A stretch of 64,000 nucleotides of DNA, taken from Gammaproteobacteria bacterium. GTDB lineage: Bacteria; Pseudomonadota; Gammaproteobacteria; Ga0077536. Numbering within the stretch: the stretch's first letter is position 1; each line of letters begins with the position of its first letter. The DNA is taken from assembly GCA_019747795.1 (NCBI GenBank), contig JAIEQK010000018.1, positions 415-64,414 on the forward strand. Direction: 5' to 3'. Shown one piece after another: positions 28,318 to 33,509 of the stretch. The notes beneath the pieces were generated by a model. That model was not told the origin of the DNA and did no database searches. It was given only the letters and a program-made list of their open reading frames with translations. Position numbers and translations under genes: made by a program.

Positions 28318-28554
28318 TCAGTCCGCGAAATAGGCAGCCATGTTTTTCAGGTTGTACAACTTCGGGTAGTCGGCTTCCGGAATCTGACATCCCGTACGCT
28401 GACTCAGGGCGATGACCAGATTGAGGAAGTCCATGGAGTCCAGATCCAGGGCCTGACGCAGGTCGGAACTGTCATCCACTGCGCCGACATCGACCTCCGG
28501 GGCAATCTCGGCCAGCGCGTCGGCGACCATCGCGCGTATCTGCTGCTCGTTCAT
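28318..28554 (-). CDS. Stand-alone acyl/peptidyl carrier protein
   Basis: 78 aa with the phosphopantetheine attachment motif DLDSMDFLNLV. ATGA overlap with the upstream E2 gene. Confidence 0.85.
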   Translation of the reverse strand: MNEQQIRAMVADALAEIAPEVDVGAVDDSSDLRQALDLDSMDFLNLVIALSQRTGCQIPEADYPKLYNLKNMAAYFAD

Positions 28555-29750
28555 AGGGACTCCGGCGCATTGAGAAGACGTTCGATTTCGCTCAGAAACT
28601 GGCTTCCGAGGTGACCGTCGGAGACGCGATGATCCGCGGCCAGACTGACGCCAATGACCGGCTGTACCTGCACCTGGCCGGCCACTGCCCAGGGACGTTC
28701 GACAATCCTACCGAAACCGATCATGGCGACCTGGGGGGGATGAATGATGGGTTGCACCGTGTCGGCGCCGCGTTCGCCGAGACTCGTCACGGTGACGGTT
28801 GCGTCCACCATCTCCGACCTGCGCAGACCGCCTCTGCGTGCGCGTGCCACCACATCCCGCAGCGCTGACATAAGGGCATCGATGTTCAGCTTGTCGACGT
28901 CGTGAATCGCTGGCGCGACCAGGCCGCCGCCACGCAGGGCCACGGCCCAGCCGACGTGGATACCTTCACCAGCGCGAAAGGCGCCATCCTCATAGTAGCC
29001 ATTGAGGCTCGGTGCCTTGGTCAGCGCGAGACCGACGGCGCGTAACAAGAGTGCTGCTGGCAAGAGGCGCGCTTCGACGCTGCGGTTCTCGTTTGCGCGC
29101 CCGAGCCAATCGAGGGCGGCTGCCATCGAGATCTGCTGCCCCAGGTAGTAATGGGGTATCTCGCGCTTGGCGCGGGCCATGGCGGTGCCGATGACGCGGC
29201 GCATGGCCGCCGCGTCGAAGCCGCCGGCGCGTCTACCCCGGGACACGCCGCCGAGGCCGGCAAGGTCGGCCAGCAGGACGGCGCCACCGGGGCCGCTGCC
29301 GTGCAGCGTGGCGAGATCGAGGCCGAGGTCGGCGGCACGCTTGCGAGCCGCGGGGCTGGCGCGCTGATGGCCGGAGTCGGTTGCGCCCCGAGGCGCGCCC
29401 GCGTCGAGTCGAGCAGTGCTGACTGACGGCGGCTCCGGCCTGAACGCAGGTGCAGGAGCCACCGGCAAGGCTTGCGCCTTTGGAGTGTCAGGCGACGCCT
29501 GGTGTTCGCTTTCGCCCTTGGTGCGCAGCCGCGCCAGCACCGCGCCGACCGCCAGCTCCGTATCGAGGGGCGCGACCAGGGCCTCCACCACCGCGTCCTC
29601 GAATACTTCGATCTCGATCGCGCCCTTGTCGGTCTCCACCACGACGATCACGTCGCCACGACGCACCGCGTCTCCCGGTTTCACCAGCCACTCGACGACC
29701 CGCGCCGACTCCATGTCCGGCCCGAGGGAGGGCATCAGGAAATCGCTCAC
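28551..29750 (-). CDS. 2-oxoacid dehydrogenase E2 (dihydrolipoamide acyltransferase)
   Basis: 399 aa from GTG 29750 (GTGA overlap with the E1 beta stop). Lipoyl domain [13 protein letters not shown], subunit-binding domain ([25 protein letters not shown]) and catalytic DHRVSDGH. The 689-aa track ORF is read-through over E1 beta in another frame. Confidence 0.88.
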
Positions 29751-30727
29751 GCGGGACGTACCACCTGGCGCACGGCGGCCACGATGCGCTCGGCGTTGGG
29801 CAGCGCCGCCTGTTCGAGATGGGCGGCATAGGGCATCGGCACCTCCGCCGCGCACACTCGCGCGATCGGCGCATCGAGCTCGTAGAACACCGACTCCACC
29901 AGCCGGGCGCAGACCTCCGCGGCGAGGGAACCGCTCTTCCAGCCCTCGTCGACGATTACGCAGCGATGGGTGCGCGCGACCGACGCCGCCACCGTGCCCA
30001 TGTCCAGGGGACGCAGCACGCGCAGGTCGATCACTTCCGCCGAGATGCCGTCGCTCGCCAGGGTCTCGGCCGCCGCCAGTGCGCGGGGCAGGCTGCCGCC
30101 ATAGGTAATCACCGTGACGTCGTTGCCCGGCCGTCGGATCCTGGCGTGCGTGATGTCGACCCCCTCGAGGTGCTCGTCGACATCCCCCTCGACGTTGTAG
30201 AGCATGACGTGTTCGAACAGCAGCACCGGATTGGGATCGGCCAGCGCGGGCGCGAGCATGTGCCGCGCATCCTCGACAGTGGCGGGCGCGAGGATGCGCA
30301 GGCCCGGGATGTGCGCGTACCAGCCCTCGAGGGAATGGGAATGCTGGGCGGCGAGTTGCCGGCCGGCACCGGTCGCCATCCGGATCACCAGCGGCACCGC
30401 GAACTGTCCGCCGGACATGTGCGGAATGGTGGCCGCATTGTTCATGATCTGATCGAGCGCGAGCAGGCTGAAGTTGACGGTCATGATCTCGACTATCGGG
30501 CGCATGCCCGCCATGGCCGCGCCGATCCCGGCGCCGACGAATGCCGACTCCGACAGCGGGGTGTCGCGAATGCGTTCCGCGCCGAACTCCGCGCACAGGC
30601 CCTTGCTCACGGCGTAACACCCCCCGTAGGCGGCGATGTCCTCGCCCATCATGAACACGCGTGGGTCGGCCTGCAGCGCGGCGCGTATGGCCTGCTTGCA
30701 GGCTTCACGGTAGGTCATGGTCGTCAT
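29747..30727 (-). CDS. 2-oxoacid (pyruvate/acetoin-type) dehydrogenase E1 beta subunit
   Basis: 326 aa. MTYREA...[33 protein letters not shown] is typical of E1 beta. Confidence 0.9.
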
Positions 30728-31713
30728 GCCGGCACCTCGTCCATGACGACGAAGCGTTCCAGGTCCTCGAGCGCTTCGAGGTGGCCGGCTTCGGCGAACT
30801 CGATGGCCGCCGTCACCTCCGCTTCGGCATCGGCCTCGAGTCTTGCGACTTCATCGTCGAACGCCAGGTGGCTGTTCTCCAGCCAGGACTGAAAGCGCAG
30901 GATGGGACTGCGCTGCTTCCAGGCCTCGACCTCCGCTTTGTCACGATAAAGCTGGGCATCGAACATGGAGTGGGCGCGGGTACGATAGGTGCGGCATTCC
31001 AGGAACTGTGGTCCGCCACCGGCGCGCAGGGCGGCTACCGCGCGGCGCGCAGCCAGTTCCACCGCGATGACGTCGTTGCCGTCCACCGCTTCGCTCGCGA
31101 CGCCGTAGCTGGCCGCCTTGGCGTGAATGTCGGTGACGCTTTCGGCGTGTGCCAGCGCGGTCCCCATCGAGTAAAGATTGTTCTCGCACACGAACAGCAC
31201 GGGCAGTCGCCAGAGGGCGGCGAGATTCAGGCTCTCGTGGAATTCACCCTCGTCGACCGCGCCTTCGCCGAAGAAGCAGGCCGACACCGCGTCACGACCC
31301 TGCATCGTGTCGCCGAGCGCCGTGCCGACAGCCAGCGGCAGACCGCCGCCGACGATGGCGTTGCCGCCGATGAAGCGCAGCGCTCGGTCGAAGAAGTGCA
31401 TGGAACCGCCCCGACCACGGCAACACCCTTCGACCTTGCCGTAGAGTTCGGCCATCAGGCGGTTCATGGGGACGCCGCGGGCAATGGCCTGGCCGTGTTC
31501 GCGGTAGGTGGCAATCACCGCATCCTGCGGGGCAAGCGTTGCCATCACACCGACTGCGATCGCTTCCTCGCCGTCGTAGAGATGCAGGAAGCCACGAATC
31601 TTCTCCCGCTGGTAGAGTTCGGCGCAGCGTCGCTCGAACACGCGAATACGCACCATCTGCGCAAGCAAGCGCAACAGGTGCTGGTGGTCCAGGTGGAGTT
31701 TGTCGCCGCTCAT
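30724..31713 (-). CDS. 2-oxoacid (pyruvate/acetoin-type) dehydrogenase E1 alpha subunit, TPP-dependent
   Basis: 329 aa from ATG 31713. Contains [11 protein letters not shown] and the TPP motif [35 protein letters not shown] overlaps at both ends. Confidence 0.9.
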
Positions 31714-33509
31714 CGTTCGTCGCTCTCCAGGGTCGAAAGATCGCCCTCCGGCAGCCCCAGTTCGCGTGCGCGCAGGAGGCGGCGCATGATCTTGCCGCTG
31801 CGGGTCTTGGGCAGGTTCTCGCGAAAGGCGATCTCGCGCGGCGCCACCGCCGCGCCGAGGCGCTTGCGCGCGTGTCCCAGCAACTGCTTGCGCAGCTCGT
31901 CGCTCGGCGCGAAGCCGGCCTTCAGCGCCACGAAGGCCTTGACCACCTCGCCGGCCATCGGGTCTGGCTTGCCGATCACACCAACTTCCGCGACCGCCGG
32001 ATGCTCCATCAGCGCGCTCTCGACTTCGAATGGTCCGATCAGGTGGCCGGCCGACTTGATCACGTCGTCGGCGCGACCGACGAACCAGAAATACCCATCG
32101 GCATCGCGGCGGGCAAGATCGCCGCTCAGGTACCACTCGCCGGCGAAGCACTTCTCGTAGCGCTCGTGTTCGTGCAGGTAATCGCGCATGAGCGACGGCC
32201 AGCCGCGCCTGAGGGCGAGCTCGCCTTCCACGTCGGGGTCCCCGATGATCTCTATGGCGCCACCGGTCGAGCGCTTGACGATGGCCGCCTCGATGCCGGG
32301 GATCGGCCGACCCATCGAACCGGGCTTGACGTCCTGGGCGGCGAAATTGCCGATCATGATCCCGCCGGTCTCGGTCTGCCACCAGTTGTCGTGAAAGGGC
32401 ATGCCAAAGGCTTGCATCGCCCAGACCACGGCTTCCGGATTGAGCGGTTCGCCGACGCTCGCCATGAAACGCAGGCGCGGCAGACAGTAGGCCGCGAGCG
32501 CCTCCAGCCCGAGTTTCATCATCATGCGGATCGCTGTCGGCGCGGTGTACCACACCGAGATGGCTTCGTCCTGCAGCACGCCGTACCAGGTCTGTGCGTC
32601 GAACTCGGCTTCCACCACCAGGTTGGTCACGCCGTTGCTGAGCGGCGCGATGATGCCGTAGCTCATGCCGGTCACCCAGCCGGGGTCGGCGGTGCACCAG
32701 AACACGTCGTCGTCGTGGAGATCGAGCACGTAGTGGCCGGTGACATGGTGTGTGAGCACCGCCCCGTGGGCGTGAAGCGCGCCTTTCGGTCGCCCGGTGG
32801 TGCCGCTGGTGAAATGCAGCAGGGCAATCGAATCGGCATTGGTAGGCACGATCTCGAAGTCGGTGGAACATTCGGCGAGCAGCGTCGACCAGTCGTGCGT
32901 GCCGGGGACGCCGGCGGGCGCGCCGCTCTCCGTAAGGAGAATCACGTGCCGCAGCCCCGGCAGGCGCTCACGAAGGCTGGCCACCTTGCGTGCGTAGAGG
33001 GTGTCGGTGGTGACCAGCACGCGCGCGTCGCCGAGCGTCATGCGCGTGGCGAGGGGCTCCGGGCCGAAAGCGGAGAACAGCGGACACACCACCGCACCGG
33101 CCTTGAAGGCCCCGAGCACCGCGACATACAACTCGAGGACGCGACCGGCGAGCACGAACACCCGCTCGCCCGGCTGTACACCGAGCGCGACCAGGGCGTT
33201 GGCGAAACGGTTGGTTTCGGCGCGCAGTTCGCGATAGCTGAGCGTGCGCCGCGCGCCGCTGCGTCCCAGCCAGCGCAGTGCGACCCGCTCGGCCCGTGGG
33301 CCGGCGGCGTGACGATCGACGGCCTCGTGGGCGATGTTCAGACCGCCGCCCGGCAGGCCAGTCAGCATCGCGCGCGCGCTCTCCCAGGAGAATTCGGCAC
33401 ACACCCGACGATAATCATCGAGATGCGGAGCGGGTCCGCGGGCAGCGCGATCCTTGACGATGATGTCGTAGACGTGGCCTGACGCGTCGGCGGTATCTTG
33501 TCCGTTCAT
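31710..33509 (-). CDS. AMP-forming short-chain acyl-CoA synthetase (AcsA/acetate--CoA ligase-like)
   Basis: 599 aa from ATG 33509. Motifs [20 protein letters not shown] (Acs-type) and [11 protein letters not shown]. Confidence 0.85.

Follow-up and report, generated by a model that had tools for sequence, protein, structure and literature searches.

Why should genes for a complex of the pyruvate dehydrogenase (PDH) type be joined to genes for an acetate-activating ligase and an acyl carrier protein (ACP)? The question is raised by positions 28318-33509 of a 64,000-nucleotide stretch of contig JAIEQK010000018.1 from a gammaproteobacterium, hereafter the window (G+C about 68%). Five open reading frames (ORFs) are located there on the minus strand. 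The first (31710..33509) encodes a ligase of 599 residues, counted from an ATG, which resembles the short, Bacillus-like AcsA type of AMP-forming acetate-activating enzymes. It is followed by the α subunit (30724..31713, 329 residues) of a PDH-type heterotetrameric E1, with a thiamine pyrophosphate (TPP)-binding motif GEG...CENN, and by the β subunit (29747..30727, 326 residues), composed of Transket_pyr and Transketolase_C domains. The E2 (28551..29750) starts at a GTG and contains a lipoyl domain with Lys42, a peripheral-subunit-binding domain and an acyltransferase domain like chloramphenicol acetyltransferase (CAT), with His374 and Asp378. The last gene (28318..28554) encodes a stand-alone ACP of 78 residues. 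Its Ser40 is located in the sequence LDLDSMDFLN, and two motifs, IAPE and IPEADYPKL, are specific to its family. The positions of the five ORFs, the four 4-nt start/stop overlaps between them (ATGA, ATGA, GTGA and ATGA) and the intact catalytic motifs had been listed in an initial annotation of the window, and all of them were found in the sequence.

We propose that these genes form a self-contained module, induced by oxygen limitation, in which pyruvate and acetate are both turned into an acetyl thioester bound to the module's own phosphopantetheinyl carrier, and put the probability of this at about one half. In the proposed mechanism, the E1 would decarboxylate pyruvate and reductively acetylate the lipoyl arm of its own E2. 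The ligase would convert acetate to acetyl-AMP. The phosphopantetheine thiol of the ACP would most likely take up the acetyl group, instead of or besides free coenzyme A (CoA). The acetyl group may come from the E2, the ligase or both, and loading by the E2 would have a precedent in the Qnc system discussed below. The E2 acyltransferase domain and the ligase would then share a private acetyl-S-ACP pool. The dihydrolipoyl arm is presumably re-oxidized by the housekeeping dihydrolipoamide dehydrogenase (E3), since the subunit-binding domain is retained in the E2 and an E3 is never encoded nearby. The acetyl thioester could serve survival metabolism or the formation of polyhydroxybutyrate (PHB) under oxygen limitation. 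We infer pyruvate and acetate as the substrates from the affinity of the enzymes to PDH, the Trp pair in the acetate pocket of the ligase and the alanine dehydrogenase or aminotransferase genes among the neighbors.

Conservation and extent of the cassette

The gene order is highly conserved. A scan of species-representative genomes with an ACP pattern identified relatives of the ACP in at least 491 genomes, among them those of Mesorhizobium, Sinorhizobium, Paraburkholderia, Cupriavidus, Rhodococcus, Streptomyces and Piscinibacter sakaiensis. Polyangiales and one metagenome-assembled genome of Thermoanaerobaculia are also among the hosts. When the five window proteins were searched with tblastn over the best 80 loci, a complete, collinear five-gene cassette was found in every locus with enough upstream DNA, and 60 independent loci with all five genes collinear were used for the comparative work. 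The order ligase-E1α-E1β-E2-ACP is found in Alpha-, Beta- and Gammaproteobacteria, Myxococcota, Actinomycetota and Desulfobacterota. Homologues found in protein searches with the ACP and with the E2 recurrently fell on shared contigs. Six gene-context look-ups, seeded with the ACP or the E2, all returned ligase-E1α-E1β-E2 followed by a gene for 77-88 residues (6/6). The initial annotation had taken the tight coupling for the mark of a single unit and the ACP for a true member of it. Both views agree with the order kept in every locus with enough upstream DNA, and with the co-occurrence search, which found the ACP in orthologous cassettes from at least five phyla. The five genes are one conserved functional unit.

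Translational coupling is also widespread. All four 4-nt overlaps are present in Methylocystis, Sinorhizobium fredii, Falsiroseomonas, Mesorhizobium and Rhodopila, and the overlap between E2 and ACP is retained even in Streptomyces. No sigma-70-like promoter and no minus-strand terminator-like site were found inside 28000-33800 of the window. The cassette is frequently located on plasmids. Annotated plasmid hosts are Rhodococcus sp. DK17, Streptomyces fungicidicus, Desulfotalea psychrophila, Leisingera, Sulfitobacter, S. fredii, Methylocystis rosea, Cupriavidus, Ralstonia, Burkholderia, Paraburkholderia phymatum and Photobacterium. In M. rosea GW6 it has the locus tags EHO51_RS19045-19065, in Rhodococcus sp. 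DK17 PST05_RS41510-41530, in S. fredii CCBAU 45436 AB395_RS32325-32345 and in D. psychrophila DP_RS15965-15985; the P. sakaiensis strain is 201-F6. The cassette is a self-contained, horizontally mobile operon. One variant was observed (L011, VGUA01000029.1, 5402-7426; L numbers denote loci). It consists of the ligase, a C-terminal fragment of the E2 (about 30%) and the ACP, and lacks E1α, E1β and most of the E2. This arrangement could be a copy in decay or else a natural minimal form made of ligase and ACP.

The cassette does not encode an E3. Six-frame translations were searched for the disulfide motif of dihydrolipoamide dehydrogenase, C-[LVIMT]-N-x-G-C-[IVMT]-P-[ST]-K. It is absent from the 64-kb window and, within 10 kb, from 92 related and comparison loci. 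The lack of an E3, already stated for the operon in the initial annotation, is therefore a family trait. The large plasmid of D. psychrophila LSv54 has a gene for a lipoate--protein ligase directly after the ACP gene (L090, 9336-10346). Its host is a strictly anaerobic sulfate reducer and the plasmid is conjugative, and it is as if this plasmid brought along a lipoylation function of its own. This neighbor argues that the E2 is really lipoylated.

Full-text searches of the literature gave no description of the five-gene unit. Automatic annotation labels the genes singly, as acsA, pdhA, E1 beta, 'dihydrolipoamide acetyltransferase family protein' and 'acyl carrier protein'. With such labels, the cassette currently passes for redundant central metabolism in metabolic models.

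The enzymes and the carrier protein

Profile searches placed four of the products in known families and left the E2 apart. The ligase scored 899.6 bits with NF003313, 'acetate--CoA ligase' (cut-off 729), the E1β 398 bits with NF006667 (cut-off 321), and the E1α 415 bits with TIGR03182, a small margin over the cut-off of 393.85. The ACP matched PF00550 with 34.7 bits (cut-off 20.8). The E2 matched the domains Biotin_lipoyl, E3_binding and 2-oxoacid_dh and remained under every NCBIfam E2 equivalog cut-off, with TIGR01349 on top at 199.8 bits versus 445.

The active sites of E1 and E2 are preserved across the family. In the E1α, the Asp of the canonical GDG motif is replaced by Glu in 47 of 50 sequences. 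The lipoyl Lys of the E2 is located in ETDK in the window; it is invariant, and the residue preceding it is H, Q or D across the family. DHRxxDG is invariant and the catalytic T/S is present. Catalytic residues are under purifying selection across the family.

Both subunits are closest to PDH. The E1α is 58-70% identical among cassettes, 39% to the housekeeping PdhA of Paracoccus, 38-44% to Aco-type E1α and 30% to RenH. The E2 is 46-57% identical among cassettes, 30% to Paracoccus PdhC, 24% to AcoC of Clostridioides difficile and 21% to RenI. In neighbor-joining trees, built with a small reference set (4 Aco-type E1α, 1 AcoC), the cassette E1α and E2 are monophyletic, adjoin PdhA and PdhC, and are located apart from the Aco and Qnc/Ren types. 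A search of the PDB with the E1α gave 235 bits for human PDH E1α versus 146 for branched-chain 2-oxoacid dehydrogenase. The best match of the E2 was mammalian E2p.

These comparisons bear on an alternative in which the complex cleaves acetoin, or another 2-hydroxyketone or 2-oxoacid, in the manner of AcoABC, and the acsA product recycles acetate derived from the acetaldehyde. The E1α is indeed about as similar to the Aco type as to PdhA, and alcohol dehydrogenase genes sometimes adjoin the cassette. In B. subtilis, acsA adjoins the acu genes of acetoin utilization. However, the trees join the cassette E1α and E2 with PdhA and PdhC, and identity of the E2 to AcoC is low. The neighbor census, the annotated loci and the E3 scan revealed a sigma-54 AcoR, AcoX or AcoL/E3 in no locus. 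The ACP is also left unexplained. We regard cleavage of acetoin or a related substrate as improbable. The plainer reading in the initial annotation, an acoABC cluster plus acsA with an accidental ACP, is contradicted by the conserved ACP and by the placement of the enzymes outside the Aco clade. The initial annotation had also named three findings that would speak against its own proposal, namely an ACP missing from related clusters, an E2 grouping with AcoC, and an E3 with acoR or acoX close by. Linkage to the ACP is conserved, the E2 is not of the Aco type, and neither E3 nor acoR or acoX is located nearby; none of the three therefore holds.

The ligase forms a distinct clade, sister to Bacillus-type AcsA. 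Identity is 57-71% among cassettes, 47% to AcsA of Bacillales, 41% to haloarchaeal enzymes and 37-40% to the long proteobacterial Acs. Its top relative in the PDB is 9g79, an AcsA of 572 residues (562 bits). All 54 sequences contain WWQTETGG, with the Trp pair of the acetate pocket, and SGK, with the catalytic Lys; the window ligase has PKTRSGK. No cassette-type ligase was found outside the five-gene cassette in the collections examined.

A conserved trio of Arg residues, Arg191, Arg526 and Arg584, is involved in CoA binding and in the thioester-forming step of Acs, and Arg526 stabilizes the thioester-forming conformation of the Salmonella enterica enzyme (PMC10455477). The cassette ligases lack this complete trio. 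The equivalent of Arg526 is Leu in 53 of 54 sequences (GHLIG versus GHR(L/I)G; Leu490 in the window), and it is Arg in the solved ACS enzymes 9g79 and 8rpk. All 54 sequences retain an equivalent of Arg584, whereas that of Arg191 is ambiguous in the alignment. In the catalytic domain of the E2, Ala190 is found in 44 of 45 sequences where PdhC and AcoC have Arg. Six Arg residues, at positions 193, 196, 273, 310, 327 and 348, are invariant and clade-specific in an exploratory comparison with three reference E2s only. The Leu in the ligase and the Arg changes in the E2 are as expected if the thiol acceptor had changed, which is not proof.

The ACP is probably a real carrier protein, as judged from its ACP fold, from a four-helix model of high confidence and from the invariant Ser where helix II begins. 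The Ser in DSM is invariant across the family, as are residues around Ser40 (LDLDSMDFLN) and in the IAPE and IPExD motifs. The AlphaFold2 model, with a predicted local distance difference test score (pLDDT) of 93.7, contains four helices with Ser40 at the N-terminus of helix II. Its TM scores with type II and mitochondrial ACPs are 0.73-0.79. The family consists of about 1015 clusters at 50% identity (E<=1e-10), and its members are acidic (median net charge -8). Every one of the best 150 representatives is a stand-alone protein, and the few longer ones do not match the E2 or the ligase in size; no gene fusion that could show a partner was found among these 150. No gene for a phosphopantetheinyl transferase is located within the cassette. 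A role of the ACP as a donor for lipoylation was considered. It is unlikely because the ligase retains an acetate-size pocket, and Desulfotalea has a separate lipoate-protein ligase.

Co-evolution was analyzed with a mirror-tree method, as the partial correlation of evolutionary distances over 61 taxa. Known partners were recovered as controls (E1α-E1β 0.55; E1α-lipoyl domain 0.30). The ligase and the E2 catalytic domain gave 0.53, the strongest link outside E1. The values for the ACP are confounded, because the long, slowly evolving ligase best tracks the shared phylogeny and the proteins differ in length.

The link between ligase and E2 is also what would be seen if the cassette were a closed ATP loop for anoxic survival. 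Pyruvate would be converted through acetyl-lipoyl-E2 to acetyl-S-ACP, and the ligase would run in reverse, from acetyl-S-ACP, AMP and pyrophosphate (PPi) to acetate and ATP. The ACP would serve as a private swinging arm between E2 and ligase. The loop would be independent of CoA, with a ligase that has lost the Arg526 stabilizing its thioester state. Such a loop would fit a self-contained module that has no conserved consumer, a correlation of 0.35 between ACP and ligase, control by FNR and the dormancy context described below. It would also fit neighboring genes that handle AMP and PPi, namely those for phosphoenolpyruvate (PEP) synthase/pyruvate phosphate dikinase (PPDK), PPK2 and proteins like phosphoribosyl pyrophosphate synthase. 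An AMP-forming Acs reportedly works in reverse in Syntrophus aciditrophicus. However, a source of PPi in non-growing cells is doubtful, the sequence gives no sign of directionality, CoA could serve equally well, and the co-evolution signal is perhaps artefactual. We therefore give the ATP loop little credence, and return to the module that forms, rather than consumes, an acetyl thioester on the ACP.

Promoter region and genomic neighborhood

The region upstream of the ligase suggests control by oxygen. A 190-bp gap precedes the ligase gene. It contains a box of the FNR/Anr/FixK type, CTGACCGGGATCAA, at 33583..33596 on the minus strand, 87 nt upstream of the ligase ATG. The box has two mismatches to TTGAT-N4-ATCAA and an intact TGA-N6-TCA core. 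A -10-like hexamer, TGTAAT, is located 22 nt after it (33555..33560, minus strand). The five closest relatives (L008, L001, L014, L035 and L081) have the same box at identical spacing, and in each of the six loci that make up this clade an NNNAAT hexamer follows the box after exactly 22 nt. This spacing places the center of the box near -41.5. No match to a -35 element was found upstream of the ligase. The arrangement is that of a putative class II FNR promoter.

The box is enriched in the family. Of 67 loci, 27 have TTGAT-N4-ATCAA with at most one mismatch in the interval from -200 to -20 relative to the ligase, versus 1.7% of random segments from the same loci (about 24-fold; Fisher p=8e-28). 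No DosR-type box was matched at four or fewer mismatches in the Rhodococcus locus. We predict that the cassette is induced by oxygen limitation through an activator of the FNR/Anr/FixK type in Proteobacteria.

The neighborhood was analyzed by clustering 1260 ORFs and by a Pfam census of the 148 nearest neighbors, which belong to 160 Pfam families. Neither revealed a constant sixth gene or consumer. The absence of a conserved consumer or E3 fits a closed module. Recurrent neighbors are Band_7/NfeD, Usp, Hsp20, GroEL, PEBP, DUF2267, alanine dehydrogenase, Crp/Fnr, PhaC, thiolase, PEP synthase/PPDK, phosphoribosyltransferases and short-chain dehydrogenases. Many neighbors are thus typical of dormancy or hypoxia, such as Usp, Hsp20, GroEL, PhaC and regulators resembling DosR. 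Alanine dehydrogenase, which forms pyruvate, or a class I/II aminotransferase recurs beside the cassette. The context in Leisingera consists of Usp, Hsp20, CBS, Crp/Fnr, DUF2267 and SulP. In Rhodococcus it includes Usp, a GAF sensor kinase with a response regulator, ppsA and a PfkB-type kinase, and in Streptomyces five Usp genes, a flavodoxin and an alcohol dehydrogenase. In Actinomycetota, the cassette sits in DosR/OsdR-like islands.

Eight loci (L028, at 248-3121, and seven more) also have a gene for a large Aas-like protein, with N-terminal PP-binding, AMP-binding and acyltransferase domains, no more than 10 kb from the cassette. In S. fredii, a gene for a 1-acyl-sn-glycerol-3-phosphate acyltransferase is located near it. 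These neighbors raise a possible link to phospholipid re-acylation.

In the window, the only typical neighbor adjoining the cassette is an orphan groEL paralogue at 35154-36773 on the plus strand, divergent to the cassette region and without groES upstream. A GroEL gene adjoins the cassette in four or five other loci (L008, L004, L078 and L082). A Usp gene (46687-47196, minus strand) and a zinc alcohol dehydrogenase gene (42467-43498, plus strand), 13-14 kb from the cassette, are the only other typical low-oxygen genes in the annotated part of the window. Between the ligase and groEL, an aminotransferase ORF of 486 residues (33700-35160) overlaps the start of groEL by 7 nt. This overlap, and the roughly 90-120 residues before the first domain match, indicate that the true start of the aminotransferase is probably further downstream. 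The initial annotation had suggested the aminotransferase as the supplier of the 2-oxoacid. As a general role this was not borne out: the 190-bp gap with the FNR site separates the gene from the cassette, and just three further loci have a homologue beside the cassette. These are from the gammaproteobacterial clade of the window, and in two of them the gene is downstream rather than upstream.

Other features are located on the far side of the ACP gene. A region at 26899-28044 (minus strand) looks like a selenoprotein gene. NF041054, 'ResA-like WAxxUGC motif-containing protein', matches on both sides of an in-frame TGA at 27625-27627 (profile positions 8-115 and 124-352 of 354), and the motif reads W-S-S-W-U-G-C. 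The hairpin that follows this UGA does not exceed shuffled sequence in stability (z=0.44), so a selenocysteine insertion sequence (SECIS) fold was not found there, and no homologue of the gene adjoins the cassette in other loci. An ORF of 314 residues at 26015-26959 (plus strand) overlaps the 3' end of this gene and has a sub-threshold match to PEP-CTERM (E=0.009); it is probably not a real gene. A further ORF of 262 residues (24886-25674, plus strand), with a low G+C content at third codon positions (0.66), matches only the middle part of an AMP-binding profile (155-311 of 384) and is probably the remnant of a degraded ligase gene. Between 23 and 36 kb, third-position G+C is lower than elsewhere in the window, a hint that this DNA was acquired.

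Several observations weigh against a carrier-bound acetyl thioester formed under oxygen limitation. With 47-55% identity to true AcsA and an Arg at the position of Arg584, the ligase may simply make acetyl-CoA. The E2 keeps every catalytic residue of CoA-using E2s, and its residue differences come from the exploratory comparison with three references, at the sequence level only. The E1α is as near to the Aco type as to PdhA, and the substrate of E1 is deduced. The mirror-tree analysis gave 0.00 for the ACP and the E2 catalytic domain, thus no specific signal, for proteins of unequal length. The value for the ACP and the ligase is moderate and may be an artefact, as the ligase is the least noisy proxy of phylogeny. 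The census of neighbors did not reveal a conserved enzyme that uses acetyl-ACP. Stress genes are recurrent rather than universal among the neighbors (Usp, 5 of 148). About 40% of the loci lack a recognizable FNR box close to the ligase; in several of these, a co-directional gene is located immediately upstream.

Much of this would also be expected if the cassette encoded an ordinary second PDH and acetyl-CoA synthetase, isozymes for oxygen-limited metabolism such as PHB synthesis or acetate recycling. The ACP would then have a role other than that of acyl acceptor, for instance as a structural or regulatory subunit or in an unrelated function of lipid metabolism. PGAP-type names (acsA, pdhA) and three genes above equivalog cut-offs are in line with isozymes, as are the conserved CoA-type catalytic residues, the neighboring genes for PhaC and thiolase in 9-10 loci, and the absent co-evolution of ACP and E2. 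However, an ACP of 78 residues with an invariant Ser is strictly co-inherited and usually translationally coupled in at least five phyla. The E2 scores below all equivalog cut-offs, Arg526 of the ligase is replaced by Leu, and no partner in lipid synthesis is conserved among the neighbors. We consider isozymes somewhat unlikely, although a serious possibility, and continue to favor the ACP as the acceptor of the acetyl group.

If the ACP is the acyl acceptor, the cassette would provide the first case, in primary or stress metabolism, of a PDH-type complex that works on a protein-bound pantetheine rather than on CoA, and an acetate-activating ligase would share its carrier with such a complex. 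The cassette is a testable candidate for the way in which aerobic bacteria handle pyruvate and acetate once oxygen runs out, a question that bears on the lxa, DosR and OsdR regulons. Were the ATP loop true, hundreds of mostly aerobic species would carry out substrate-level phosphorylation on a protein-bound pantetheine arm.

Comparison with known systems

The cassette shares its parts with several known systems. Like the alphaproteobacterial and mitochondrial PDH, it has a heterotetrameric E1 and an E2 composed of lipoyl, subunit-binding and CAT-like domains. Its E1α and E1β pass the NCBIfam PDH cut-offs, and PDH components are nearest in the neighbor-joining trees and top the PDB matches. Unlike alphaproteobacterial PdhB, the cassette E1β lacks an N-terminal lipoyl domain. 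The low E2 scores, GEG in place of GDG and the absence of an E3 also set the cassette apart from PDH, and it always forms one operon with the ligase and the ACP. The ligase resembles Bacillus-type AcsA (9g79, NF003313) in identity (about 47-55%), length class, Trp pair, motifs A3, A8 and A10 and catalytic Lys. It differs by the identity gap and by Leu for Arg526. AcoABC(L) also encodes E1α, E1β and a lipoyl E2 together, with comparable identity of the E1α. However, the cassette is a separate clade. True aco loci have lpdA and the sigma-54 regulator AcoR, or an AcoC of the α/β-hydrolase type, none of which accompanies the cassette.

The setting of the cassette resembles low-oxygen and dormancy islands, such as the lxa locus of Burkholderia cenocepacia (PMC3721108) and the mycobacterial DosR and Streptomyces OsdR regulons (PMC7244524, PMC6302529). 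As in these islands, it is accompanied by Usp, α-crystallin/Hsp20, the PEBP 'phospholipid-binding protein' and polyhydroxyalkanoate synthase. Alcohol dehydrogenase, a cation ATPase, a PfkB kinase and regulators of the Crp/Fnr or GAF-kinase type are also common to both, as is the TGA-N6-TCA promoter motif. The lxa locus itself was considered as a source of the cassette and rejected, since its published gene table is without E1, E2 and ACP genes (PMC3721108). No cassette genes were found in the paper on B. cenocepacia H111 under micro-oxia. The cassette is an accessory module of low-oxygen islands in other taxa.

The closest parallel for the carrier protein is found in specialized metabolism. 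In QncN/QncL/QncM (quinocarcin) and SclQ1-4 (scleric acid), an E2 loads a stand-alone ACP by passing a C2 acyl group from the lipoyl arm, and no E3 is encoded (PMC6335953). The Qnc-type E1 acts on ketose phosphates, and the product is glycolicacyl-ACP (PMC6335953). The premise of the initial annotation, that 2-oxoacid dehydrogenase systems do not include a carrier protein, is thus too broad, as the Qnc, Scl and Ren systems include one (PMC6335953). Together with RenH/RenI (renieramycin), they share a TPP-dependent E1, a lipoyl E2 and a discrete ACP without an E3 with the cassette. This common parts list would fit a supplier of an ACP-bound C2 unit for a specialized metabolite made by a nonribosomal peptide synthetase (NRPS) or polyketide synthase (PKS). 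However, RenH and RenI, at 30% and 21% identity, are located outside the cassette clade, and no locus has NRPS or PKS genes near the cassette. Hundreds of lineages that are not producers have the cassette, and it also occurs beside stress genes on small plasmids. The known systems belong to NRPS clusters and have neither an AcsA-type ligase nor an FNR box or a stress-gene context. We consider a supply role of this kind very improbable. The FNR/Anr-type promoter and the hypoxia/dormancy context point to primary stress metabolism rather than to a biosynthetic pathway. The principle that an E2 can load an ACP was thus already known. New in the cassette are its separate clade, the joining of such enzymes to an acetate-activating ligase, the oxygen-regulated setting in primary or stress metabolism, and the breadth of its distribution.

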